Assembly (NCBI GenBank): GCA_963708025.1
Contig: CAVPSB010000035.1
Location: 10,800-74,799, forward strand
Source of the DNA: an uncultured Candidatus Rokubacteria bacterium
GTDB taxonomy: Bacteria; Methylomirabilota; Methylomirabilia; Rokubacteriales; DASRDR01
Direction: 5' to 3'
Length of the DNA stretch: 64,000 nucleotides
Below are positions 628-36,386 of this stretch, one piece after another. Below the pieces are notes generated by a model. It had not been told where the DNA came from, ran no database searches, and saw only the letters and a list, made by a program, of their open reading frames with translations. The translations under genes and the position numbers were made by a program. Within the stretch, counting starts at the first letter, position 1, and every line of letters begins with the position of its first letter.

Positions 628-2592
628 GTGAGCGGGACGCCGTTCCCCCGGCTCTTCAGCCCGCTTCCGCTGGGCCCCCGGATCGCGCGGAACCGGATCG
701 TCAGCACGCCCCACACCACCGGGTTCGCCGTCGACGGCTTCCCCCGGGAGCGCTGGCTCGCCTACGAGCGCGAGAAGGCGCGCGGTGGGTGCGGGACGAT
801 CATGATGTTCGGCTCGGCCTCGGTCCACCCGAGCTCGCCCGTCGCCGCCGCCGGTGGGGTCGAGCTGTGGGACCCGGCGGTGGTGCCGCACCTGCGCCGT
901 ATGGCCGAGGCCGTCCACGCCGAGGGCGCCCTCTGCCTGGCCCAGGTCTCGCACTGGGGCCGGGGCGGGGTCGGGCCCTACGCCGACTGGCCGCTGCTGG
1001 CGCCGTCGGACGAGCCCGACGAGACGCACCACGGGATCCCGCGCGCTCTCTCGAAGGCCGAGATCCACGAGCTGGTCGACGCGTTCGGCCGCGCGGCCGC
1101 TCACGTCAAGCGCGGGCGGCTACGACGGCGTGGACCTCTCCTGCTGGGGCGGGCACCTCACCGAGCAGTTCCTCTCGCCGGTCAGCAACCGGCGGACGGA
1201 CGAGTACGGCGGCTCCCTCGACAACCGCATCCGGTTCTGCCTGGAGACGCTGGAGGCGGTGCGCGCCGCCGTCGGGCCCGACCTGATCGTCGGCGCGCGG
1301 CTGACCGGCGACCAGCTCGTGGAGGGCGGCCTGACCCTGGAAGACACCCAGGCCATCGCCGCCCGGCTGGCGGCCACCGGCCGGCTCGACTACGTCACGG
1401 TGAGCGGCGGCTCGACCGAGCAGTACCGCGCGCTCCCCTACGTCACCCCGACCTACTACGCGCCGCTCGGCCTCTACAACCGCTTCGCCGCCGCGGTGAA
1501 GGCGGTCGTGCAGGTCCCGGTCATCGTCGCCGGGCGGATCGTCCATCCCGCCCAGGCCGAGGAGGTGCTGGCCCAGGGCTGGGCGGACGCCGTCGCCATG
1601 ACCCGCTCGCTCATCGCCGACCCCGCGCTGCCCCGGAAGGCGAGGGACGGGCGGGTGGACGAGATCCGGATCTGCACCGGAGCCAGCGAGGCCTGCATCG
1701 GCCGGCGCATCCAGGGCAAGACGATCGCCTGCATCCAGAACCCGGCGATCGGCCGGGAGGCGGAGCTGGCCGACGTCCGCCCGGCCGACCGCGCGCGCCG
1801 GGTCGTGGTGGCCGGCGGCGGCGTCGCGGGGCTGGAGGCCGCCCGCCTGGCGGCGCGGCGCGGTCACCGGGTCGTCCTCTTCGAGGCGGCCCTCGAGCCG
1901 GGCGGCCAGCTCCGCGCGGTCTGGCGCTCGCCGGCGCGCCAGAGCTACCAGGAGGTCGTGCGCTGGCTCGTCGCCGAGGTCGGGCGGGCAGGGGTGGAGG
2001 TCCGGCTGGGGACCGAGGCGACGGCCGCGTCGGTCCTGGCCGAGCGGCCTGACGTCGTCGTGGTCGCCACCGGGGTCCGCCCTCGCGCGCTCGAGGTGCC
2101 CGTCGCGCCGGACGCCCACGTCGTGACCGCGGAGGACGTGCTGCTCGACCGCGTCGCGCCCGGGCCCCGGTGCCTGGTCGTGGACTACCACGGCCACATG
2201 CCGGGGCCGAGCGCCGCCGAATTCCTCGCCGACCGCGGGTGCCGGGTCGAGATCGCGAGCCGCTTCTTCACCGTCGGCGAGGACATCGACCCCCGGCTCA
2301 AGACCAGCGTGTACACGCGGCTCTACCAGAAGGGCGTGGTGCTGACGCCCCTGGCCGTGGTCCGGGAGATCGGCGCGGGCTGGGTCCGGCTGGCCAACAC
2401 CCTGACCGGCCAGGAGCGGGTCGTCGAGGTGGACACCGTGGTCACGGCCCTCGGCGGCCGGGCGGACGACGCCCTGGCGCGCGGCGCTCGACGGCCAGGG
2501 CCGTCGAGCTCCACGTGGTGGGCGACGCCCTGGCGCCGCGCACGATCCACGACGCCATCCTCACCGCCACCCGCGCCGCCCGGCGCTTCTGA
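628..2592 (+). pseudogene. Old-yellow-enzyme (FMN) plus FAD/NAD(P) domain oxidoreductase, 2,4-dienoyl-CoA reductase family; frame broken about 3 times
   Basis: GTG at 628 follows GAGGGA. The N-terminus (VSGTPFPRLFSPLPLGPRIARNRIVSTPH...) lies in ORF 406..2052. The core (GYDGVDLSCWGGHLTEQFLSPVSNRRTDEYGGSLDNR...VVVAGGGVAGLEAA) lies in ORF 854..2656. The end (VVGDALAPRTIHDAILTATRAARRF) lies in ORF 2170..2592. Frame changes are near 1112, 2487 and 2505. Confidence 0.8.
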
Positions 2593-2667
2593 CCCAGCGG
2601 GGCCGGGCATTGATGAGGGGTCGTGGTTCTTCCGCATAAAAGAGTACGACGAATGACGGAGGCGAAT

Positions 2668-2925
2668 ATGGCAACCAACGTCAAGATCACCAGCCGCCCT
2701 GCTGGCGTGATCCGGCATGCCGGTACTGCGATCCGCTCGGTCAGCCCTGGCGTGATCGCGAAAGCGCTCGGGGCCGAGAAGGCTGTATCCAGGGAGAACG
2801 TTCTCGGCGCTCCGATTAGTCTGCACGCATTGCGACGGGCGCTGGAGAGCCGGGTTCGCTCCACGGGCGGGCGGCCGGCTCTGGAAGGGGCAACGAAGAT
2901 CCAGAAGATTCCGCTGAGAGCCTGA
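2668..2925 (+). CDS. hypothetical small protein; possibly the N-terminal part of a frameshifted ribbon-helix-helix-like protein
   Basis: ATG at 2668 lies 5 nt after GGAGG, inside ORF 2623..2925. The region is less G+C-rich than its flanks. After the stop, the +1 frame reads EDWSRLEELAAQLSQEGVSATAGQVASVMVHSQLQL (2924..3106). Confidence 0.3.
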   Translation: MATNVKITSRPAGVIRHAGTAIRSVSPGVIAKALGAEKAVSRENVLGAPISLHALRRALESRVRSTGGRPALEGATKIQKIPLRA

Positions 2926-3139
2926 AGACTGGTCTCGACTCGAAGAGTTGGCCGCCCAACTCTCTCAGGAAGGCGTCTCGGCTACAGCTGGACAGGTCGC
3001 GAGCGTAATGGTCCACAGCCAGTTGCAGCTCGTCGCACCATCAGCCACGCGCCAAGGGAGAACCTCTCGACGCCCGGCGACGCGGCGGGTAACCGGACAT
3101 CGATGATCACTCGTAGCCCAGGGGCTGCCGCTAGCCACA

Positions 3140-3297
3140 TTGATCTCACTGCATTCGGATACATCGTTCGCGACGACGCCCTGGCCCGCGCGCTCGACGG
3201 GCAGGGCCTCGAGATCGACGTCGTGGGCGACGCCCTGGCGCCGCGCACGATCCACGACGCCATCCTCACCGCCACCCGCGCCGCCCGGCGCATCTGA
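3140..3297 (+). pseudogene. stub B: orphan C-terminal ~50 codons of a flavin reductase paralogue
   Basis: Reads IDLTAFGYIVRDDALARALDGQGLEIDVVGDALAPRTIHDAILTATRAARRI with no upstream body. The last 63 nt (3235..3297) match 2530..2592 at 62/63. Confidence 0.75.
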
Positions 3298-3451
3298 CCC
3301 GGCGGGGCGCGCCACGATCCAGTGGCCGACGGCGAGGGTGCCGATGTGACGCGAGAAGCTCGCGCCCGATCCTCGCGGCAGACCCGGCCGCCAGGCGTGA
3401 CCGAGTGCGCGGCCCGCCAAGGGGTCGCGGGGACGGCAACCGGCGCCGGGC

Positions 3452-4384
3452 TCAGCGGGCCGTGGGGGGCGCCGCCCGGTTGACCACGGTCATGGCGGTC
3501 GCGATCATGGCGCCGATGTCGGCGACGTTGGCGGGCACGATCAGGCTGTTGGTGGTCCGGGCCAGCTCCCCGAACTTGGTGATGTACTGCTCGGCCACCC
3601 GGAGCTGCACCGCCTCGACGCCCCCGGGCACCTGGATCGACTCCGCGACCCGGCGGATGCCCTCCGCGGTGGCGGCGGCGATGGAGAGGATGGCCGAGGC
3701 CGCGCCCTCCGCCTCGTTCATCTCCTGCTGACGCTTCGCCTCGGAGGCCTTGATGACCTGCTGCTTCTGGCCCTCGGCCACGTTGACGGCGGCGTCCCGC
3801 TCGCCCTCGGAGGTCAGGATGACGGCCCGCTTCTCCCGCTCCGCCCGCATCTGCTTCTCCATGGCGGCCAGCACGTCCTTGGGCGGGGTGATGTTCTTGA
3901 TCTCGTAGCGGAGCACCTTGATCCCCCACGGCTCCGATGCCTTGTCCAGCTCGCTGACGACCTGGCTGTTGATTTGGGTGCGCTCCTCGAAGGTGCGGTC
4001 CAGGTCGATCTTGCCGACCTCGCTGCGCAGGGTGGTCTGGGCGAGCTGGCTGATGCCGAACATGTAGTCGGCCACGCCGTAGGAGGCACGCTCCGGGTTC
4101 ATCACCTTGAGGTAGAGGACGCCGTCGACGCCGACCTGGACGTTGTCCCGCGTGATGCAGATCTGCTCGGGGATGTCGACGGCCGTCTCCTTCAGGGAGT
4201 GGCGGTACCGGATGGCGTCGAGGAAGGGGATCAGCAGGTGAAAGCCCGCGTGGAGCGTCGCCCGGTACTTGCCGAGCCGCTCCACGACGTAGGCGCTCTG
4301 CTGCGGTACCACCCTCGCCGTCTTCGCGATGACGATGATGACCAGCACGGCGAGCACCACGAAGACGACCAGCGCTTCCGTCAT
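3452..4384 (-). CDS. SPFH/band-7 (stomatin/prohibitin-like) membrane protein
   Basis: 310 aa with an N-terminal TM helix, then VVPQQSAYVVERLGKY...GVDGVLYLKV...TLRSEVGKIDLDRTFEER...VLRYEIKNITPP and a coiled-coil tail. Confidence 0.95.
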   Translation of the reverse strand: MTEALVVFVVLAVLVIIVIAKTARVVPQQSAYVVERLGKYRATLHAGFHLLIPFLDAIRYRHSLKETAVDIPEQICITRDNVQVGVDGVLYLKVMNPERASYGVADYMFGISQLAQTTLRSEVGKIDLDRTFEERTQINSQVVSELDKASEPWGIKVLRYEIKNITPPKDVLAAMEKQMRAEREKRAVILTSEGERDAAVNVAEGQKQQVIKASEAKRQQEMNEAEGAASAILSIAAATAEGIRRVAESIQVPGGVEAVQLRVAEQYITKFGELARTTNSLIVPANVADIGAMIATAMTVVNRAAPPTAR

Positions 4385-11278: not shown

Positions 11279-11346
11279 CGAGCGCCGCGACGGAGGTGAG
11301 CTCCGTCGGATACACTTGGGTCCCCATCCCCCCGCCGCGCCCGCCC

Positions 11347-11409
11347 CTGGCGCCGCGCACGATCCACGACGCCATCCTGACCGCCACCTGCGCCGCCCGG
11401 CGCATCTGA
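11347..11409 (+). repeat. stub C: third copy of the last 63 nt (including stop) of the flavin reductase gene
   Basis: 61/63 identical to 3235..3297. Reads LAPRTIHDAILTATCAARRI-stop, with no homologous coding sequence upstream. Confidence 0.85.
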
Positions 11410-11468
11410 CGAGGCCGGGGCGCCCTGTTGTCTTGCACAAGTGCCATCGTCGTATTACACTGGTCGGC

Positions 11469-11720
11469 GTGAAGACCCTCACCGTGCGATTGCCCGAGGC
11501 CCTGGTCGCGGAGATCGAAGCCGAGTCTCGCGAACGTCGGCGCTCGAAGTCCGACGTTGTTCGGGAACGCTTGAGCCGCGTCGCCGGGCCGCGCGCGAGG
11601 CCCGCGTCCCCGGCCATTGCCGATCTCGTGGGCTCGGTCGGTGGGTTGCCGGCCGATCTGAGTGGGCAGAAGAAGGCCTACTTGAAGACCACGGGTTATG
11701 GCCGGAAGCGCGCTCGTTGA
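11469..11720 (+). CDS. vapB: ribbon-helix-helix (CopG/VapB-type) antitoxin
   Basis: GTG at 11469. Reads VKTLTVRLPEALVAEIEAESRERRRSKSDVVRERL. It overlaps the PIN gene by 23 nt. Confidence 0.8.
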   Translation: MKTLTVRLPEALVAEIEAESRERRRSKSDVVRERLSRVAGPRARPASPAIADLVGSVGGLPADLSGQKKAYLKTTGYGRKRAR

Positions 11721-12108
11721 CGCCGGTTTTCTGATCGCCCTTCTGAGCCGCCGGGACCGCCATCACGCATGGGCGGCGGCCCAATCCCCGGGTCTTGCCC
11801 CGCCTTGGAAAACCTGCGAAGCGGCCCTCTCGGAGGCCTTCCATCTTCTCGGGGCTCGGGGCCGACCTAGCCTCGCCACGCTTCTTCGCCGCAGCGCTGT
11901 GGTCTCCGCCTTCGACCTCACGGACGAACTGGACCGAGTCTTGAATCTCATGCAGAAGTACGCCGACGTCCCGATGAGTCTTGCGGATGCCTGCCTCGTG
12001 AGGATGAGCGAAACCCTGGCCGATCCTGTCATCCTGACCACCGATGCTGATTTCCGCATCTATCGCCGCCACGGTCGTCACGTTGTTCCCTGCGTGACCC
12101 CGTACTGA
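11698..12108 (+). CDS. vapC: PIN-domain ribonuclease toxin VapC
   Basis: 136 aa. Contains ALVDAGFLIALL...CEAALSEAFHLL...MSLADACLV...ILTTDADFRIY, the acidic PIN signature. Confidence 0.85.
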   Translation: MAGSALVDAGFLIALLSRRDRHHAWAAAQSPGLAPPWKTCEAALSEAFHLLGARGRPSLATLLRRSAVVSAFDLTDELDRVLNLMQKYADVPMSLADACLVRMSETLADPVILTTDADFRIYRRHGRHVVPCVTPY

Positions 12109-12168
12109 CGGAATTCGAACCCGCGTGTGGGTCTGCCACGCTGCGACGTCGGGAGCCGGACGACCCGG

Positions 12169-12353
12169 CCTACTCCGGTGGCGGAATGAGATTCAGCAGG
12201 GGGCTCGTCCCGGGTGGCCATCTCCGCCCGCGCCACGTTGACGAGGACGGCGGTCGGCTTCATGGCCCGAAGCTCGCGGTCCCGACGAGGCCGCGGGTCC
12301 GGGGCGTGAGCGGCAGCGCGAGCGCCGGGTAGTCGGCGCGCCTCAGCACGCTG
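12169..12353 (-). pseudogene. internally deleted remnant of the 3' third of the 2-hydroxyacid dehydrogenase gene
   Basis: Aligns to 13212..13262 and 13482..13616 of the intact gene, with about 219 nt missing between. ORF 12078..12434 contains LRAMKPTAVLVNVARAEM, versus LRAMKPTALLVNVARAEI in the intact gene. Confidence 0.8.
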
Positions 12354-12554
12354 TAGCGCACGGCTGAGGTCAACCCCCAACAAATCTCTCGCGTCGTCGT
12401 CGCGCGAGCTGATGAACGCGGCGGGGAGCGTCAACGGTCGGAGGTAGCTCCGGGTGGGCAGTTGGACGGGCCGCGCTCGAGGTCACGGGCCGGTGAAACG
12501 CCCTGCCACTCTACGCTATCATCGGGTGGCCGCCAGGCCGAGGGGGATGCCGCC

Positions 12555-13049
12555 ATGACGATGTACTGGAAGGAGATCACGGTCAACTGGGGTGAGTCCG
12601 ACCCGTTCGGGCTCGTCTACTACCCCCGGATCGTCGCCTGGTTCAACGACACCGAGCACGAGCTGTTCCGGACCATCGGCTACCCGATCGAACAGATGAT
12701 CAAGAACGATCGCACGACCTTCGTGATGGGCGAGATCCACTTCCGCTTCATCGGCCCCGCCGCCTACGGCGACCGGATCATCACGACCATCACGCTGGCC
12801 GAGATCGGCGAGCACACGCTGCACTGGAACTGCAAGGCCAAGAACGCGCTCACCGGCGCGGAGGTCAGCGAGGGCCGGGCCACCCGTGTGTACGCGCGCA
12901 TCAACGAGGACGGCACGCTGAAGGCACACCCCATCCCGGAAGAGATGCGGAGCGCGCTCCGCGAGCTGGGCGATCTCAAGCATCTCCGGCCGAACAGCGG
13001 GCCGTCCAAGCTGCCGGCCGCGAGCCACCTGCGGCAGCAGCCGCCCTAG
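12555..13049 (+). CDS. 4HBT/YbgC-like acyl-CoA thioesterase
   Basis: ATG at 12555 follows AGGGGGA. Reads MTMYWKEITVNWGESDPFGLVYYPRIVAWFNDTEHELFR, a hot-dog fold signature. Confidence 0.8.
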   Translation: MTMYWKEITVNWGESDPFGLVYYPRIVAWFNDTEHELFRTIGYPIEQMIKNDRTTFVMGEIHFRFIGPAAYGDRIITTITLAEIGEHTLHWNCKAKNALTGAEVSEGRATRVYARINEDGTLKAHPIPEEMRSALRELGDLKHLRPNSGPSKLPAASHLRQQPP

Positions 13050-13052
13050 ATG

Positions 13053-13205
13053 CTTCGGGGGGGTGTCGGAACACCCCCCCGATGCCCCCCCGCCGTTGCG
13101 CCGGCGAAGCCGGCGCTCGGAGCGCTGTTCGATGCACGCCTCGCGGATCGACTTTCGCGAGGCTACGCCGACACGCCCTAGGCCATTTCGGGAGGCTCGG
13201 AAAGC
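13053..13205 (-). repeat. REP-A element (inverted orientation) with G7-hairpin core
   Basis: cttcgggggggtgtcggaacacccccccgatgcccccccg... aligns to the reverse complement of 18091..18210. Confidence 0.7.
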
Positions 13206-13213
13206 CCTTGGTC

Positions 13214-14195
13214 CTACTCCGGTGACGAGATCTGATTCAGGGGGGGCTCGCCCCGCGCGGCCCGGTGGATGTTCTCCGCGATGAGGGTCGCGCGCGCCTC
13301 CACCATGCCTTCGGTCCAGCCGGACACGTGCGGCGTCATGAGGACGTTCGGCAGCTCGTGGAACGGCCGTTGCGCGGGCAGCGTCGGGTGGGGATCGGAC
13401 GGGTACCGGTACCAGACGTCGAGGGCGGCGCCCGCGATCCGCCGCTCGGCCAGCGCCTCGTAGAGCGCGTCCTCGTCGACGATCTCCGCCCGCGCCACGT
13501 TGACGAGGAGGGCGGTCGGCTTCATGGCCCGAAGCTCCGGGTCCCCGAGGAGGCCGCGGGTCTCGGGGGTGAGCGGCAGGGTGATCGCCAGGTAGTCGGC
13601 GCGCGTCAGCACGCTGCTCGAGGGCGTCGGGCCCCCGGAGGACGACGAGGCCCTGGCGGTCGGGCTGCGTGGCGTCGCGGCGGATCGCCAGGACCGTCAT
13701 GTCGAACGCCCGGGCGCGCCGGGCCAGGGCCTGGCCGATCCGGCCGTAGCCGAGGATGCCGAGCGTCTTGCCGGCCAGCTCCGGCCAGGGCGCCGGGGGC
13801 GGCGCCGACACCGCCCACTGGCTCTCCCAGTCTCCGCGCCGGAGGCGGGCGTCGAGGCGGCAAAAGCCGCGGCTCAGTGCCAGCATGGCCCCGATCACGT
13901 ACTCCGCGATGCCGCGCTCGTGGCCATAGGCATTCGCCAGCCACGTGCCGGGCGAAAGCGCGGCTCGGTCGATCCGGTCGAGGCTGGCGCCGGGCACCTG
14001 GACGAGCCTGAGGCGTTGGGCCGACGCCCCCATCTCGCGGGTGAACGCCATGCTGACGAGGACGTCCACATCGGGAAGCGGGGAGCCGATCCCGGCCTCC
14101 TCGTCCACGACGACGTCGCACGGGATCGCCAGGTGGGACCGGATTGGCTCCGCGAGGCGGGCCGCGAAGACACCGGCGAAGGCGACGCGAAGCAT
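13214..14195 (-). CDS. D-isomer-specific 2-hydroxyacid dehydrogenase (glyoxylate/hydroxypyruvate reductase-like), one frameshift near 13615
   Basis: The N-terminus MLRVAFAGVF...GKTLGILGYGRIGQALARRARAFDMTVLAIRR lies in ORF 12519..14270. The C-terminus LTRADYLAITLPLTPETRGLL...LMTPHVSGWT lies in ORF 13214..13612. Confidence 0.85.
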
Positions 14196-30244: not shown

Positions 30245-31697
30245 TCATCGCGGTCGGCCGGATGATCGTCCCCTTCGCGGTCTTCCAGCGGCACGGCCCG
30301 GCCGGCCGGGGGCGGCGGAGGACGGCTCTCCGCTCGCCGCGTGCTGGGTCCAGTAGTGGTGCGTCTTGGCGACGGCGGTCACCACGTTCCGGATCTCGCC
30401 GTCCAGGGCGAACCGGGGCCCCGCCGGGAGGTAGAGGACTGCGCCCTCGCGCCGCGCCATCACGTTCTCGACGACGATCGCGCGCAGCAGCCAGACAGCC
30501 ATCGTCTCACTCGCGCACGCGATGCCGATCCAGCCGGGTGGCCCGTCGTCGACGATGTCGAGCCCGGTGATCATCCGGATCCCTCGCGCGAGCTCCTCCA
30601 GCACCGCGTGGTAGCCCTCGGGGTCCGCCAGAACCTCCTCCCGCGAGACGGGCTCGAGCAGTGTCCCCCGGTGCGGCGGTCCCCCGGCCAGCGCCAGCTC
30701 GCAGAAGCCCTGCCACATCACGTCCCACGCCACGCGCCCGTCGGGATCGCGCTGCACGGCCGCCGCGCCCATCGGCGCGCTGCTCACGGAGACGCCGGGG
30801 TCCCGGTAGCGCGGGGGGAGCAGGGCTGCCATCCGGGCCTCGACGTCGGCGAGGGAGGCGCCGTCGTGGGCATGGGCCTGCCGGAGCTCCTGGACGACCC
30901 GGGCATCCAGGAGCGCCTCGACGTAGCGCCGCACGATCGCCGGGAGGAGCGCCGGGTGAGGGTCGAGCGGCCGGGCGAGCACGACCGCGACGCCCGAGGC
31001 CTTCGCGCCGGCACGAGCCTGCTCGGCCAGCCGGCGATACGTCCGTCCCGCGAAGAGGAGGTGGGGCACGACGACGATCCGGCGCGCGCCCAGCCGCGCC
31101 CATCGACGGATCGCGTCGGCGCACGGTGGGGGCGGTCAGGTCGACGAAGGCGTAGCCGACGTCGGCGAAGCGATGCGCCTCGTAGACGAGCCGCGCCAGC
31201 CGGGCCAGCTCGGCGTTGCCGACGGGATTGGCCCCGCCGCCCCCGGCGATCACGACCACCACCTCGCCGGAGGCGGAGGACCGGCGAGAGCGCCCGCCCG
31301 CCGCCGCGCGCGCGCGGTCGCCGAGGATGCGGGCGACGTCGTCGGTGTCCGGTGGCTCGCCGCGGTGGACGCGCAGGCTGCGGCCAGCGCTGGGCGATCC
31401 GGGCCAGCAGCGTCCCGAGGCGCCCCGCCGGCTCGCCGGCCAGGCCCAGCACGAGCGGCAGCGCGACGAGCCGGGCGGCGCCGCGGGCGACGGCCCGCTC
31501 GACGGCGCCGGCCAGCGGGTCGTCGGGGGCCGTCCAGGCAGGCACGGCTCGACCGCGTGCCCGAGCCGCGCCGCGAGCCGGCCGGCCAGGCGCCGGAGGG
31601 CGTCGCCCGAGCCGGGGTCGCGCAGCGCGAGCAGCAGGGTGACGGGGCGGTCGGCTCCCGGGCCGGAAGCGAGGCGGTGAGGGGGTGTCCGTGGCAT
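30245..31697 (-). pseudogene. CbiX/SirB-type double-domain chelatase-like protein with C-terminal extension; at least 3 frameshifts
   Basis: Pieces lie in three frames: MPRTPPHRLASGPGADRPVTLLLAL..., AVERAVARGAARLVALPLVL..., GEVVVVIAGGGGANPVGNAELARLARLV..., and RIVVVPHLLFAGRTY.... Frame changes are near 31545, 31385 and 31115. Confidence 0.6.
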
Positions 31698-31778
31698 CGC
31701 CCGACGCGTCGATGATACGATACACGCGCGACGGACGGACGATCCACCCACGCCCGGACTCTCACAGGAGCGACGACC

Positions 31779-32888
31779 ATGGCGGAAGCGCGGCTGAACC
31801 TGCCCTTCACCGGGCTCGTGTCCTTCATGCGCGTCCCGGCCTGCACGGATCTCACGGCCATCGACGCGGACATCGCGATCCTGGGCACGCCGACCGACGA
31901 GGGCTCGCCGTGGAAGCCGGGCGCCCGCTTCGCGCCGCGGAAGATCCGGGAGCTGTCGGTCAAGTACGCGGGGTACGGGCCGACGCAGAACCAGCTCGGC
32001 TACTACGACATCGAGGAGGACCGGCGCTACCTGGAGTACGAGCGGCAGCACCGCCGCATCGTCGACTGCGGGGACTCCGACATCATCTACACCAACGTCC
32101 GGCGCACCTTCGACAACATCACGCGCGACGTCAAGGCGATCCTGAAGGCGGGGGCCTTCCCGGTGGTCATCGGCGGCGACCACGCCGTCACCTACCCGGT
32201 CGTCCGGGCCTACCAGGAGCGGCTCAACGTCGTCCACTTCGACGCCCACCTGGACTACCGGCCGTTCATCCACGGGGTGCAGTGGGCCAACGGGAATCCC
32301 ATCCGGAACGTCTCGCAGCTCAAGAACTGCCACCACATCATCCAGGTCGGCATCCGGAGCCTCCGCACGAGCCAGGCCGACGTGGCGGACTCGCGGGCGC
32401 GCGGGAACGACGTCGTGACCATCCCCGAGTTCCGGCGGCGGGGTCACCAGGCCATCGTCGACCGGCTGCCCAAGGGCGAGCCGGTCTACGTCTCGATCGA
32501 CATCGACGTCCTGGACCTGCCGCTGGTTCCGGGGTGCGCGTCGTCGGAGGTGAACGGGCTCACCTACGACGAGCTGCGCCAGACGCTCTTCGCCATCGCG
32601 CGGAGCCGGGAAGTCATCGGCTTCGACCTGGTCGAGGTGAACCCGATGCTCGACGTGGCCTCGGACAACACCTCGCTGATCGCCGCCCAGCTCATCATCG
32701 AGTTCCTCGGGCGGATCGTCGAGCACCCGGGCTACCGCAAGCGCCACCCCATGCGCGAGGCCGCCCCCACCAACGGCCGCGGCCGCCCGGCGCCGGGCCG
32801 GCCGGCGCCGGCGACCTCCTCGGACGGCGGCCGTCTGCGGACCGGCAGCGCCCGGGTGGGAGCCGCCCGCTCAGCTCGAAGGCGGTGA
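31779..32888 (+). CDS. arginase/agmatinase/formiminoglutamase-family ureohydrolase
   Basis: Contains ILGTPTDEGS, GGDHAVTYP, HFDAHLDY, SIDIDVLD and GFDLVEVNP, the Mn-binding motifs. Confidence 0.9.
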   Translation: MAEARLNLPFTGLVSFMRVPACTDLTAIDADIAILGTPTDEGSPWKPGARFAPRKIRELSVKYAGYGPTQNQLGYYDIEEDRRYLEYERQHRRIVDCGDSDIIYTNVRRTFDNITRDVKAILKAGAFPVVIGGDHAVTYPVVRAYQERLNVVHFDAHLDYRPFIHGVQWANGNPIRNVSQLKNCHHIIQVGIRSLRTSQADVADSRARGNDVVTIPEFRRRGHQAIVDRLPKGEPVYVSIDIDVLDLPLVPGCASSEVNGLTYDELRQTLFAIARSREVIGFDLVEVNPMLDVASDNTSLIAAQLIIEFLGRIVEHPGYRKRHPMREAAPTNGRGRPAPGRPAPATSSDGGRLRTGSARVGAARSARRR

Positions 32889-32946
32889 GCGCCTCCTCTG
32901 GCTGCTTCATGCTGACTACCCCCCGGGGTATACTCCGAAGCAGAGT

Positions 32947-33546
32947 GTGCTGATGGCGACCGCCTTGGCCTCACGACACTTCACCGCACTGGAGTTCGAG
33001 CGGATGGCTGCGATGGCCATCTTCGGCGACGACGAGCGTGTCGAGCTGCTGGATGGAGTGGTTGTCCCCATGACGCCGATCGGTGACCGCCACATCGGTT
33101 GTGTCAACTACCTCACGGACTGTCTGGGCGACCGCCTCCGGGGCCGCGCCCTCATCCAGGCTCAGAGCGCGATCCAGCTCGCGCCCGACTGGGTTCCCCA
33201 GCCGGATGTCGCCATCCTGCGACGCCGCCAGGACTACTATCGGAAGGGCAAGGCTCGGCCTGAGGAGGTCTTCCTGCTCATCGAGGTGGCGGACACTTCG
33301 GCCAGCCTCGATCGCGACGTCAAGCTGCCAGGCTACGCCCGCGGGGGAATCCCGGAGGTGTGGCTGGTCGATCTCGACGCCGATCTCATCCTGGTGGCAC
33401 GCGACCCGAAACCGGCGGGGTACGCGGTCATCGCCTCCCATGCTCGCGGCTCGGCTCTCCGACTCCCCGGCTTCCCGGACGTCACGCTGACCGTCGATGA
33501 GATACTCGGTCCGCTGGCATCCGACGCGCGTGGCGACAGCCGGTAG
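32947..33546 (+). CDS. Uma2-family (DUF820) restriction-endonuclease-fold protein
   Basis: 199 aa. Contains FERMAAMAIFGDDERVELLDGVVVPMTPIG..H and PDVAIL...LLIEVADTS...D...K...Y...GIPEVWLVDL. The start could also be the ATG at 32953. Confidence 0.85.
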   Translation: MLMATALASRHFTALEFERMAAMAIFGDDERVELLDGVVVPMTPIGDRHIGCVNYLTDCLGDRLRGRALIQAQSAIQLAPDWVPQPDVAILRRRQDYYRKGKARPEEVFLLIEVADTSASLDRDVKLPGYARGGIPEVWLVDLDADLILVARDPKPAGYAVIASHARGSALRLPGFPDVTLTVDEILGPLASDARGDSR

Positions 33547-33548
33547 AC

Positions 33549-33715
33549 GACAACACGTCGCTGATCGCCGCCCAGGTCATCATCGAGTTCCTCGGGCGGA
33601 TCGTCGAGCACCCGGGCTACCGCAAGCGCCACCCCAGGCGGGAGGCCGCCCCCACCAACGGCCGCGGCCGCCCGGCCCGGAGACCGGTCGGCTCGAAGGC
33701 GGTGAGCGCCTCTCT
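33549..33715 (+). pseudogene. displaced duplicate of the agmatinase 3' end
   Basis: It starts 2 nt after the Uma2 stop. The first 128 nt differ from 32664..32791 at 4 positions by my manual alignment. Reads DNTSLIAAQVIIEFLGRIVEHPGYRKRHP. Confidence 0.85.
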
Positions 33716-33733
33716 AGCCGCTCGCCGATAGCC

Positions 33734-34726
33734 ATGCCGGAGCATTCACGGCGCGTCCTGCTGGCCGCGCTCGCGCTCGGTCTCCTCGCGGCATCGCTCG
33801 CCGTCGAGGCGCAGCCCGCGGGACGCGTGTATCGTGTCGGGATCCTCCTCGAGGTCGCGCCACCCGCCCCGTCGGACCGTGCCACGCAGTCGGTCCTGGT
33901 CCCGGACGCCCTGCGTGAGCTGGGGTACGCCGAAGGCCAGAACCTCCTCGTCGAGCGGCGATTCGCCGGGGGCAAGCGGGACCGCCTGTCCGGGCTGGCC
34001 CGGGAGCTGGTCCAGCTGCGGGTGGACGTCATCGTCGCGGTCAGCAACGAGGCCACCCAGGCGGCCAAAGACGCGACGAAGACAATCCCCATCGTCATGC
34101 TCGGCGGCTCGGTGGTGGAGCGGGGGTTCGTCGCGAGCCTTGCTCAGCCCGGCGGGAACATCACCGGGGTTGCCATATCGGAGACCACCCTGGCCGCCAA
34201 GCGCCTGGAGCTTCTCAAGGCAGCGGTCCCTCGCGCCACGCGGATCGCGGTCCTCGCCAGCGGCGCGGAATACCAGGCGACCCAGCTGCGAGAGGCGCAG
34301 GAGGCGGCGGCATCCCTCGGCATCACGCTGGTTGTCGTCGAGGCCCGGGACGCGGACTACGGCCGCGCATTCGTCCGGATGGTCTCCGAGCGGGCCCAGG
34401 CCCTCTCCGTGTTCTCCAGCCCGCTTCTCCATCGCGATCGGAGGCGGATCATCGAGCTGGCCGCGAAGCACCGGCTCCCCGCGATCTACCAGTGGCGCGA
34501 GCACGTGATGGAGGGAGGCCTGATGGCGTATGGCAGCAGCCTCTCCGGGCTCGCCCGGCGCATCGCGGCCTACGTCGATCGGATCCTCAAGGGGGCGAGG
34601 CCGGCCGACCTGCCGGTGGAGCAGCCGATCGTCTACGAGCTGGCCGTCAACCTGAAGACCGCCAGAACTCTCGGCCTCACGATCCCGCCGTCGGTGCTGG
34701 CGCGAGCGGACGAGGTCGTCGAATGA
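33734..34726 (+). CDS. PF04392-type (ABC_sub_bind) periplasmic binding protein
   Basis: Contains signal peptide, AQPAGRVYRVGIL, GGNITG, RILKGARPADLPVEQP and NLKTARTLGLTIPPSVLARADEVVE. Confidence 0.9.
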   Translation: MPEHSRRVLLAALALGLLAASLAVEAQPAGRVYRVGILLEVAPPAPSDRATQSVLVPDALRELGYAEGQNLLVERRFAGGKRDRLSGLARELVQLRVDVIVAVSNEATQAAKDATKTIPIVMLGGSVVERGFVASLAQPGGNITGVAISETTLAAKRLELLKAAVPRATRIAVLASGAEYQATQLREAQEAAASLGITLVVVEARDADYGRAFVRMVSERAQALSVFSSPLLHRDRRRIIELAAKHRLPAIYQWREHVMEGGLMAYGSSLSGLARRIAAYVDRILKGARPADLPVEQPIVYELAVNLKTARTLGLTIPPSVLARADEVVE

Positions 34727-34754: not shown

Positions 34755-35354
34755 TCACATGAGCCGGACCCGGAGGTCGGCCGGGCGGCCGGCGTTGGTC
34801 GGCGCCAGGTCCTGGGGGCACGCCGAGCAGGCCGCGATCAGGTCGAGGCGCGCCAGCAGCGTGACGTAGTCGTCCGGCCTCGCGGTGGACGCCGCGCTCA
34901 GGAACCGGCCGTCCGGCAGCACCGGGGAGTTCTGGAACAGGTTGACCGGGTCCGGCACCCGCCAGTCCGGGATCCCGTGGGGCGCCAGCACCTCCACGAA
35001 GTTCATCCGGCAGCTCCGGTGGTCCTCGACCCCGAAGTCGCGGCGGTAGCGATAGGGGTCGCAGGCGGCGGCCAGGATGTCGTGGACGCCGACGGTGTCC
35101 TCGACCAGGTCCACGATCTCCCGGCGGTGGTTCGTGAAGAGGCTCTGGCCCTTCCCGATCCGCCACGCGGCCAGGCAGCGCCGGGTGTGGCTCGGGCTCA
35201 GGAACTCGGTGAGGTCGGCGGCGTTGAAGGCGATGAAGTCGCCGACCTGCTGGCCCCGGGTCTGGGCGATGGTCACCCGATCGCCGGCCCGCATCGACCA
35301 GAGGCGGGCGTGGCCGGCGGGAATGACGAACTCTCGCGGACTACTGTCGCTCAT
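34755..35354 (-). CDS. DUF1989 (urea carboxylase-associated) family protein
   Basis: 199 aa. Contains VIPAGHARLWSMRAGDRVTIAQTRGQQVGDFIAFNAADLTEFLSPSHTR. Confidence 0.8.
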   Translation of the reverse strand: MSDSSPREFVIPAGHARLWSMRAGDRVTIAQTRGQQVGDFIAFNAADLTEFLSPSHTRRCLAAWRIGKGQSLFTNHRREIVDLVEDTVGVHDILAAACDPYRYRRDFGVEDHRSCRMNFVEVLAPHGIPDWRVPDPVNLFQNSPVLPDGRFLSAASTARPDDYVTLLARLDLIAACSACPQDLAPTNAGRPADLRVRLM

Positions 35355-35387: not shown

Positions 35388-36386
35388 CTACTCGATGACC
35401 TGATCCGCCCGCGCCAGCACCGAGGGCGGGATCGTGAGCCCGAGGGCCTTCGCGGTCTTCAGGTTGATCACCAGCTCGAACGTGGTGGGCTGCTCGATGG
35501 GCAGGTCGGCAGGCTTGCCCCCTCGGAGGATCCGGTCCACGTAACCGGCCGCGCGCCGATACATGTTGACCGTATTGGCTCCGTAGGCCATGAGGCCTCC
35601 CGCCGTCGCAAAGTCCCTCTGCCCGGCAATCGCGGGCAACCGGTGCCTGGCTGCGAGCCCGGTGACCTCGGTTGTGTGAGCGTTCAGCGGCGCAACATTC
35701 GCCACGAGGAGCGCTTGCGTGCCGTCCTTGACCATGGTCGAGAACGCACCCGCGAGATCGCTCGGGCCGCGCACCCCGTGGCGCTGGAGCTGCATTCCCA
35801 ACGCCCGGCCTGCCGCGCCCATGTCCTTCCAGTTGGCCTCGGCGACGGGTCCCGGCTGAATCCCCGGAACCCAGAGATACCCCACGCGGAGAGCATTCGG
35901 CAGGGCCTCCTTCAGTAGCTCCAGCCGCTTCAGGGTGAGCTCGAAGTCCTGCATGGAAAGCCCGGTCACGTTGCCACCGGGCCGGGCGAGGCTCGCCACG
36001 AGCCCGCTCTCGTCTGGCTGGCCGACCGACGCCATGACGATGGGAATCGTGGTCGTCGCTTGCTTGGCGGCCCGCGAGCCGGGCGTGCCGTGGGTCACGA
36101 TGAGGTCGACCTTGAGGCCCACCAGCTCGGCCGCCAGGCCCGGCAAGCGGTCGTACTTCCCCTCGGCCCAGCGATATGCGATGACGAGGTTCTTGCCTTC
36201 GTCGTACCCGGCGTCCCGGAGCCCCTGTCGCAGCGCGGCGATCTGGCGCGCGTGTTCCGAAGCGGACGTCTCGCCGAGGAAGCCGATCCGATACATCCTT
36301 CCAGCCGGCTGCGCCTCGGCGGCGAGCGGCGAGACGAGGAGGCCGAGCGTCAGAATGACTCCGAGGGCGAGCCGTGAAGCGGTCAT
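35388..36386 (-). CDS. PF04392-type (ABC_sub_bind) periplasmic binding protein
   Basis: ATG at 36386 follows AGGAGA. Contains AQPAGRMYRIGFLG...GGNVTG...RILRGGKPADLPIEQP...NLKTAKALGLTIPPSVLARADQVIE. Confidence 0.9.
   Translation of the reverse strand: MTASRLALGVILTLGLLVSPLAAEAQPAGRMYRIGFLGETSASEHARQIAALRQGLRDAGYDEGKNLVIAYRWAEGKYDRLPGLAAELVGLKVDLIVTHGTPGSRAAKQATTTIPIVMASVGQPDESGLVASLARPGGNVTGLSMQDFELTLKRLELLKEALPNALRVGYLWVPGIQPGPVAEANWKDMGAAGRALGMQLQRHGVRGPSDLAGAFSTMVKDGTQALLVANVAPLNAHTTEVTGLAARHRLPAIAGQRDFATAGGLMAYGANTVNMYRRAAGYVDRILRGGKPADLPIEQPTTFELVINLKTAKALGLTIPPSVLARADQVIE

Follow-up and report, generated by a model that had tools for sequence, protein, structure and literature searches.

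The DNA under study is a 64,000-nucleotide stretch from an uncultured soil Candidatus Rokubacteria bacterium (contig CAVPSB010000035.1 of assembly GCA_963708025.1, positions 10,800 to 74,799), which is called the window hereafter and has a G+C content of 71%. It contains only one Uma2 gene, and this gene is enclosed by two copies of the 3′ end of an agmatinase-like gene. Coordinates are those of the window, and the features of the locus lie on the plus strand unless stated otherwise. The agmatinase-like gene (31779–32888) is intact and encodes an arginase-family protein of 369 residues (Pfam PF00491, E = 8e-67). The label agmatinase is approximate, the score with the agmatinase equivalog model TIGR01230 being 173.2, just below the cut-off of 174.3. 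The C-terminus of the protein, which ends with ARRR, is of the native type and is found in the relatives P0241 and P0242 as well. Repeat copy 1 (H1, 32664–32895) is a portion of this working gene, comprising its last 74 codons, the stop codon (32886–32888) and 7 further nucleotides. It is followed by the leader of the Uma2 cassette (32896–32952, G+C 0.60), which holds a conserved GTATACT with a −10-like TATACT at 32929–32934; as judged from the limits of homology, the part from 32906 to 32952 is common to two other loci, L165 and L161. The Uma2 gene itself (32953–33546, with the stop codon TAG at 33544–33546) encodes 197 residues and matches PF05685 with an E-value of 7.6e-29 over profile positions 3–171 of 172. 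A non-homologous junction of two nucleotides, AC (33547–33548), separates its stop codon from repeat copy 2 (H2, 33549–33712), which starts with GACAACAC. H2 is a 5′-truncated, promoterless and frame-shifted agmatinase 3′ fragment with a 68-nt internal deletion, in which the agmatinase stop triplet is still present (33703–33705), and it is a pseudogene remnant. A native spacer (33713–33733) leads to the next gene, and the distance from the TGA of H2 to the ATG is 28 nt, compared with ~26 nt in a contig free of Uma2. This next gene (33734–34726), called ABC1 here, encodes an ABC_sub_bind solute-binding protein (PF04392, E = 1e-44). It is the second cargo of a variable slot whose right edge is a DUF1989 gene on the minus strand (34755–35354).

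Both a repeat search and a pairwise alignment show that positions 32664–32791 recur at 33549–33676 with 124 of 128 nt identical (97%, 4 mismatches), and that a tail of 29 nt is shared as well (32867–32895 and 33684–33712, 93%). In the self-BLAST of the window, 32664–32806 pairs with 33549–33692 with an E-value of 1e-57; no other direct repeat of the 64 kb is as strong, and the match is far beyond chance. With the tail included, the repeat measures 232 nt in copy 1 (32664–32895) and 164 nt in copy 2 (33549–33712), copy 1 holding 75 nt (32792–32866) where copy 2 has 7 nt. A preliminary description, made by a model from the letters and a list of open reading frames (ORFs), had counted the same 4 mismatches and had noticed the shared tail, the start of copy 2 two nucleotides after the Uma2 stop codon and the lack of any ORF other than Uma2 between the copies, all of which agree with our results. 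The distance between the copies, given there as 643 nt, is 653 nt (32896–33548) once the tail is counted. The TATACT that it suggested as a −10 box is at the position indicated, and neither a full sigma-70 consensus nor a terminator consensus was found at the cassette. The segment 32792–32866 belongs to a G+C-rich, low-complexity C-terminal extension of the agmatinase-like protein (past about residue 326), rich in Arg, Pro and Gly, which is different in each orthologue.

The same arrangement is present in L166, a 4.8-kb contig from another Joint Genome Institute (JGI) sample, which is 92.4% identical over 31685–34726. Its gene order is agmatinase, Uma2, copy 2 and ABC1, and its junction, TAG followed by AC and GACAACAC, is identical to that of the window. 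Copy 2 of L166 keeps the stretch that is deleted in the window (2460–2679 versus 3312–3524 of that contig, 220 nt, 85%). Because copy 2 is full-length in L166, the 68-nt deletion in the window copy 2 must have occurred later. Copy 1 of the window has an internal 15-nt duplication (PGRPA) that L166 does not have. Between the window and L166, Uma2 has a synonymous divergence (dS) of 0.111, the agmatinase core one of 0.076 and ABC1 one of 0.122; all parts have co-diverged since before the split of the two lineages. The core of copy 2 differs by 7.3%, about the neutral dS of 0.076, and copy 2 is frame-shifted relative to the gene and carries indels; H2 therefore evolves neutrally. A few positions common to both copies within one genome suggest some gene conversion between them. 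Copy 2 encodes HPRRE, a variant that also occurs in the natural agmatinase allele P0241, and this fits another allelic origin of copy 2 but is not a proof of it. The ~50 nt made up of the copy 2 tail and the spacer before ABC1 (window 33660–33740 versus L166 3490–3550) are identical despite ~8% neutral divergence elsewhere, and this segment may have been recruited into the promoter or leader of ABC1.

The Uma2 protein is a full-length PF05685 member and a predicted nuclease, with a PD-(D/E)XK fold and an intact catalytic-type motif (E..PD..E-x-x..K). The motif residues ELLDG, PQPD, LLIEVAD and DRDVK are kept in 7 of 7 subfamily members, and the positions of the PD..E..K motif are kept in the alignment to PDB entry 9y1l. 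With a ratio of nonsynonymous to synonymous divergence of 0.2–0.3, the gene is under purifying selection. Its G+C content at third codon positions is 0.82, as against 0.97 for the agmatinase gene and DUF1989. The hidden Markov model of the PADLOC candidate defence gene PDC-S03 (PDLC04833), a candidate family by sequence only, matches Uma2 with an E-value of 2.7e-14.

Proteins 87–95% identical to the window Uma2 are found in other contexts. In L161 the gene lies between an MR_MLE (mandelate-racemase-type) gene and an AbiEii gene on the minus strand, and in L256 and L257 between a glycosyltransferase gene and a truncated methyltransferase gene; a 75% relative adjoins SSB/RadC genes in L162–164. 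The cassettes in the two unrelated loci (L161; L256/L257) are 88–95% identical at the DNA level. Homology to the window is limited to 32911–33546 in L161, 32906–33548 in L165 and 32922–33517 in L256, so that the shared DNA extends from ~25–76 nt upstream of Uma2 to about its stop codon. The leaders have 25–47 nt in common, with the conserved GTATACT, and L165 and L161 share 76 nt. Downstream of the gene, L161 has kept 166 nt of a former neighbour, including a 38-nt match to the methyltransferase remnant downstream of the L256 cassette. The ends of the cassette are therefore not precise, since leader and tail lengths vary between contexts and L161 carries former-neighbour DNA, and on this point the sharp boundaries of the preliminary description do not hold. 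Its claim of a one-gene insert is borne out by relatives whose slot lacks Uma2 and by the near-identical cassettes in unrelated loci. Uma2 is thus an insertion and behaves as a mobile single-gene accessory cassette with its own putative promoter.

No terminal inverted repeats were found in the four cassette copies, and no transposase or integrase in the insert, where Uma2 is the sole ORF by Pfam. No recombinase gene was found in or beside the Uma2 element within 30–37 kb. No Rfam element was found in the cassette (an Mcr7 match scored 22 bits, where the gathering score is 380, and is due to chance), and viral contigs contained no relatives of it. A transposon or insertion sequence was ruled out by the missing transposase and terminal inverted repeats and by flank repeats of 15, ~60 and 232 nt. 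An element carrying a replacement agmatinase end was likewise ruled out, as the L161 and L256 copies have no agmatinase sequence upstream. A 20-nt motif common to the downstream flanks of L161 and L256 was also dismissed, a genome scan having given six matches in unrelated taxa, as expected by chance.

Relatives differ in whether Uma2 and ABC1 are present, which makes the interval from the agmatinase-like gene to DUF1989 a variable slot. In orthologous loci of Rokubacteria/Methylomirabilota metagenome-assembled genomes (MAGs), neither Uma2 nor ABC1 follows the agmatinase-like gene; in L002 and L004-6 it is directly followed by DUF1989 on the same strand. A 75.8-kb contig with a 90% identical agmatinase, for which the gene table was used, has the backbone of the window with neither Uma2 nor ABC1, in the order CbiX (minus), agmatinase (plus), a 91-residue ORF (minus), DUF1989 (minus), Amidohydro_3, M24 and PrpD. 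In contig RrmNdtvH, again known from its gene table, the agmatinase gene is directly followed by an 86%-identical ABC1 with no Uma2, the stop-to-start distance being ~26 nt; a junction of agmatinase and binding protein lacking Uma2, the search for which had been recommended, does exist. The 1-kb contig L165 contains the agmatinase tail, Uma2, 61 nt and DUF1989 (minus), without a full copy 2 and without ABC1. Its Uma2 and DUF1989 proteins are 96% and 97.6% identical to those of the window, H1 and the Uma2 cassette meet at the same position as in the window, and the leader is the longest of all. The 61-nt flank of L165 shows a weak similarity to the repeat (shuffling p 0.0003–0.05), and 1 of 6 control windows scored as high; no ABC1 remnant was detectable in a 33-nt piece of L165. 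By these gene orders, the slot contains nothing much, the Uma2 cassette or an ABC-type binding-protein gene depending on the strain, and the window stacks two of these cargos.

Exact-protein look-ups of the window Uma2 and agmatinase gave no match. No close relative of Uma2 was found in 185,579 species-representative genomes, the best being 49% identical, and a metagenome scan, in a collection without newer JGI samples, reached a best identity of 59%. No close ABC1 was found in the species-representative genomes either; the best was 66% identical, and none adjoined agmatinase. The ABC1 homologue P0128 was rejected as a relative of the slot, as it sits in an unrelated FitA/PIN context. In contig GV31LOQW (gene table, no DNA), an ABC1-like protein is preceded only by a 93-residue ORF ending at the position of the agmatinase stop, with no full agmatinase called upstream, and this ORF may be another truncated agmatinase 3′ fragment joined to a binding-protein gene.

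On the backbone side, DUF1989 is convergent with the agmatinase-like gene in the window, in the 75.8-kb contig and in L165, and its relative orientation is opposite in L002 and L004-6. Arginase-family and DUF1989 domains are fused in single 531-residue proteins (P0338, P0358) and are encoded by overlapping adjacent genes in several Rokubacteria (L004-L006), which suggests that the two backbone genes are functionally linked. A second ABC_sub_bind gene (Pfam) occupies 35388–36329 on the minus strand, so that two paralogues flank DUF1989 in inverted orientation. They form an inverted repeat of 167 nt (34556–34722 and 35392–35558, 77%) and a second one of 109 nt (33745–33853 and 36270–36378, 72%), which could promote inversion of the DUF1989 segment.

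The layout of the Uma2 locus is not confined to it, and the window holds two further scars of the same kind around other cargos. The 3′ ~140 nt of an Oxidored_FMN/Pyr_redox_2 gene (stop codon 2590–2592) is repeated at 93.5% identity (2465–2603 and 3172–3308), the repeat reaching ~15 nt past the stop. The insert between the copies (2609–3171, 563 nt, of lower G+C) contains a 100-residue ORF without a Pfam match and antitoxin-like remnants. On the minus strand, the 3′ ~400 nt of a 2-hydroxyacid dehydrogenase (2-Hacid_dh) gene (13214–13616, with the stop codon at 13214–13216) is repeated at 12168–12355 with an internal deletion of ~225 nt, and the insert of 854 nt (12356–13213) contains a 4HBT thioesterase gene in the opposite orientation. 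In all three scars, that of Uma2 included, the repeat stops 3–18 nt past the stop codon, and no recombinase gene was found beside any of the three inserts. A third copy of the oxidoreductase 3′ end (11345–11423, 75 nt), 9 kb from the oxidoreductase gene, has the same ~18 nt after the stop and lies directly upstream of an RHH-PIN (VapBC-like) pair (11316–12108). The oxidoreductase end with these 18 nt thus occurs three times, each time followed by different DNA, and the third copy looks like a fragment of a former neighbour travelling with the toxin–antitoxin (TA) module. Comparable gene-end repeats number 3 in this 64 kb, 0 in 270 kb from 25 other Rokubacteria-type loci and 2 in 669 kb from other loci, and the cluster could be a peculiarity of the lineage or of the region.

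Whether flank duplication is a signature of Uma2 was judged from the loci with the same cassette and from a wider survey of about 130 more distant Uma2 loci, in which flanking direct repeats of at least 40 bits were counted and compared with shifted controls. Among the loci with the same cassette, a copy of ~60 nt from the MR_MLE 3′ region starts exactly at the end of the cassette tail in L161 (E = 9e-8, with CCTC microhomology). Downstream of its cassette, L257 has a piece of the upstream glycosyltransferase gene; L165 has a 15-nt exact repeat (1–15 and 747–761 of that contig), and L256 has no flank repeat. The glycosyltransferase fragment of L257 (915–1150) is nearly identical to L256 1–90, the upstream glycosyltransferase, the rest of the two contigs being 84–91% identical, and it is followed by an MqsA-like zinc-finger ORF. 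In the wider survey, flanking direct repeats were found at 14 of 132 Uma2 loci as against 7 of 341 shifted controls. On inspection, none of these repeats was a duplicated end of the upstream gene; they proved to be tandem Uma2 arrays, a whole flanking paralogue or intergenic elements resembling repetitive extragenic palindromic (REP) sequences. For the family at large, then, Uma2 genes show no association with duplicated ends of the upstream gene, and this was the finding that the preliminary description itself had named as speaking against its hypothesis. Tandem arrays of Uma2 paralogues occur in Gemmatimonadales and other MAGs (L087, L173, L189, L100, L191), with G+C-rich REP-like separators of ~140 nt or repeated leaders. 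In L220 and L222, two copies (83% over 196 nt) of a gene for a small coiled-coil protein enclose a distant Uma2 gene, whose start is overlapped by the stop of the upstream copy.

The two agmatinase 3′ ends are neither a functional element nor a target duplication of the transposase type. We propose that they are the scar of one homologous crossover in the agmatinase 3′ end and one end-join, by which two alternative cargos of the variable slot were stacked, a reading that we hold with about as much belief as doubt. The donor segment would begin at agmatinase codon 296, end 2 nt after the Uma2 stop codon and derive from an agmatinase-Uma2 allele; an agmatinase-ABC1 allele would have taken it up, or the other way round, by a single crossover in the agmatinase 3′ end and a single non-homologous end-join. 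This would amount to Campbell-type integration of a circularised fragment or, equivalently, to homology-facilitated illegitimate recombination, in which the homology segment would be duplicated automatically. Copy 1 would complete the working gene, and copy 2 would be a promoterless leftover with the native spacing to ABC1, which would since have decayed by the 68-nt deletion in the window and by small indels in L166. The Uma2 nuclease would not be required for the event. This mechanism is favoured because the locus consists of a seamless copy 1, a cargo, a homology-free junction and a 5′-truncated copy 2 with native spacing. Homology is absent where the Uma2 end meets H2 (TAGAC, where AC is followed by GACAACAC), and the H1 side is seamless coding sequence. 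As in a Campbell-type scar, the direct repeats are a fragment of the adjacent gene, one copy is intact and the other 5′-truncated, and one junction is free of homology. Allele types resembling both parents occur, namely L165 for agmatinase-Uma2 and RrmNdtvH, by its gene table and in another upstream context, for agmatinase-ABC1. Because two non-nuclease cargos of the window show the same architecture, the duplication needs no Uma2 nuclease, and the scar probably reflects how this genome stacks accessory genes rather than a special homing trick of a nuclease.

Several points weigh against this proposal, of which the order of events and the crossover-plus-end-join step are what we infer. The agmatinase-ABC1 parent is known from a gene table alone and in a different upstream context. 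If the weak resemblance of the L165 3′ flank to the repeat (p about 0.002–0.03) is real, L165 would be a deletion derivative and not a parent. Parsimony leaves the order of events undecided, the models needing 3 and 3–4 steps. The duplication in L161, an unrelated locus, hints that duplications accompany the cassette itself. Finally, the density of three scars in 64 kb against none in 270 kb suggests a dedicated mechanism, for which generic recombination may fall short.

The hint from L161 leads to the main alternative, itself rather unlikely, in which the Uma2 cassette came from elsewhere and was captured in one step a few nucleotides past the agmatinase stop of an agmatinase-ABC1 locus, the flank of ~220 nt being duplicated in the same event. 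The route would be a break with widely staggered ends or a template switch during replication that resembles microhomology-mediated break-induced replication (MMBIR), possibly provoked by the Uma2 nuclease, and L165 would be a later deletion derivative. The topology of L161, with a ~60-nt piece of the upstream gene right after the cassette (E = 9e-8) and CCTC microhomology, is that of such a capture, and the glycosyltransferase fragment downstream of the L257 cassette and the L165 flank (p 0.0003–0.05, with 1 of 6 controls as high) point the same way. The sequence CTCGGA(C) is present in the cassette 3′ tail (L165/L161) and also in the agmatinase gene, immediately to the left of the repeat. 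The predicted microhomology product is not seen, the junction being 3 nt short. A recombinogenic activity of the nuclease has been proposed by Feder & Bujnicki (PMC551604), but about 130 Uma2 loci show no general association with such duplications, L256 with the same cassette has no flank repeat, and the two non-nuclease cargos of the window have the same architecture. The derivation of L165 would moreover require a clean 1.15-kb deletion. The claim of a selfish nuclease cassette in the preliminary description is supported in part: the mobility stands, and the tie between the duplication and the Uma2 nuclease is not supported.

The density of scars could instead mean that a recombinase encoded at another place uses the 3′ end of a host gene as its attachment site, and that integrase-less cassettes resembling cis-mobilizable elements (CIME-like) were added serially, each integration regenerating the gene end and giving arrays of gene, H, cargo, H and cargo. 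All three repeats stop 3–18 nt past the stop codon, and the oxidoreductase 3′ end recurs with the same 18 nt before three different sequences, once upstream of the RHH-PIN pair. We nevertheless regard this site-specific accretion as improbable, as no recombinase gene lies beside any of the three inserts, the repeats differ greatly in length (about 140, 232 and 400 nt), their left boundaries have no common motif, the L161 cassette has no agmatinase end upstream, and the junction between Uma2 and H2 resembles a blunt end-join. A broader joint claim, which we find quite unlikely, is a lineage-specific serial installation of small promoter-plus-ORF genes 3–18 nt past the stops of host genes, each regenerating the 3′ end as a direct repeat of 140–400 nt; this would be cassette stacking with the gene end as attachment site, driven by a recombinase or by nucleases such as Uma2. 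The cargos in such a putative process would be Uma2, TA-like genes, the thioesterase and the binding protein, and a gene-end fragment also travels with the RHH-PIN pair. Classical homing, in which Uma2 would cut Uma2-less alleles at this junction and be copied in by homologous repair, is the strict form of the homing-type cassette suggested in the preliminary description. It can draw on the PD-(D/E)XK fold with intact motifs and on filled alleles (window, L166, L165) and empty ones (two contigs, gene tables only) at the same junction. It is very improbable all the same, since homologous repair makes no duplication, whereas a flank of 232 nt is duplicated here, and since the cassette occupies three or more unrelated sites with varying boundaries. 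An assembly artefact, in which two strain haplotypes were concatenated, is hardly credible, even if the lineage is uncultured and strain-rich and the window has three similar structures. It is excluded because L166, independently derived from another sample, shares gene order and junction at 8% neutral divergence and with indels of its own, and the k-mers across the junction would be impossible without real reads.

In Cyanobacteria, Chloroflexi, Rokubacteria and others, few uncharacterised nuclease-fold genes are as abundant as those of the Uma2/COG4636 family, and no functional or biochemical study of the family was found in literature searches. Selfish Uma2 elements were proposed 20 years ago without a description of what moves; in the present case, it is the ORF together with a short leader that contains the conserved GTATACT. 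As filled and empty alleles are known, the uninterrupted agmatinase-ABC1 junction offers a concrete substrate for cleavage assays. Caution is needed in that flank duplication also occurs around unrelated cargos and hence is no proof of nuclease-driven homing. The three scars in 64 kb are a small, testable lead on the accumulation of accessory genes in an uncultured phylum. We conclude that this locus provides a new and well-delimited case of a mobile Uma2 cassette and that the duplication of its flank is best read as a recombination scar, of a general type already known.

The idea that the family is selfish and homing-like is not new, as COG4636/Uma2 genes have already been proposed to be selfish, homing-like and recombinogenic elements by Feder & Bujnicki 2005 (PMC551604). 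Their proposal and the present case have in common the family, the erratic genomic positions, the recent movement and the rearrangements adjoining the gene. They differ in that the former rested on phylogenomic distribution only, whereas here the moved unit is delimited (leader and ORF) and the duplication is not Uma2-specific. Uma2 proteins have also been regarded as likely solo toxins (Makarova et al. 2009, PMC2701414). The solitary gene with its own promoter-like leader, the AbiEii neighbour in L161 and the PDC-S03 match agree with this view; in the window, the neighbours of Uma2 are metabolic and transport genes. Like free-standing homing endonuclease genes, the cassette consists of a single nuclease-fold ORF, lies between genes immediately downstream of a host gene and has filled and empty alleles, but unlike them it occurs at several unrelated sites, with a flank duplication and variable ends.

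Prophages and islands are known to integrate into the 3′ end of a gene and to bring a replacement end, as e14 and phage 21 do in icd and as islands do in tRNA genes. There too, the host gene remains intact, and the insert is bordered by a duplicated 3′ end of the gene that has diverged slightly. The Uma2 insert differs in being only 653 nt long and without an integrase, in that the L161 and L256 cassettes have no agmatinase end, and in that the junction is not a conserved att core. The closest parallel to our proposal is Campbell-type integration, or homology-facilitated illegitimate recombination, which has reportedly been described for natural transformation (e.g. de Vries & Wackernagel 2002). 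To our knowledge, such scars have rarely been documented as conserved natural features. Unlike in those systems, the parental alleles are here deduced from metagenome contigs, and the circular intermediate or donor is hypothetical. The likeness lies in one crossover within a gene fragment combined with one non-homologous join, so that the homology segment forms direct repeats around the insert, with one intact and one 5′-truncated copy and with no transposase, terminal inverted repeats or short target duplication.

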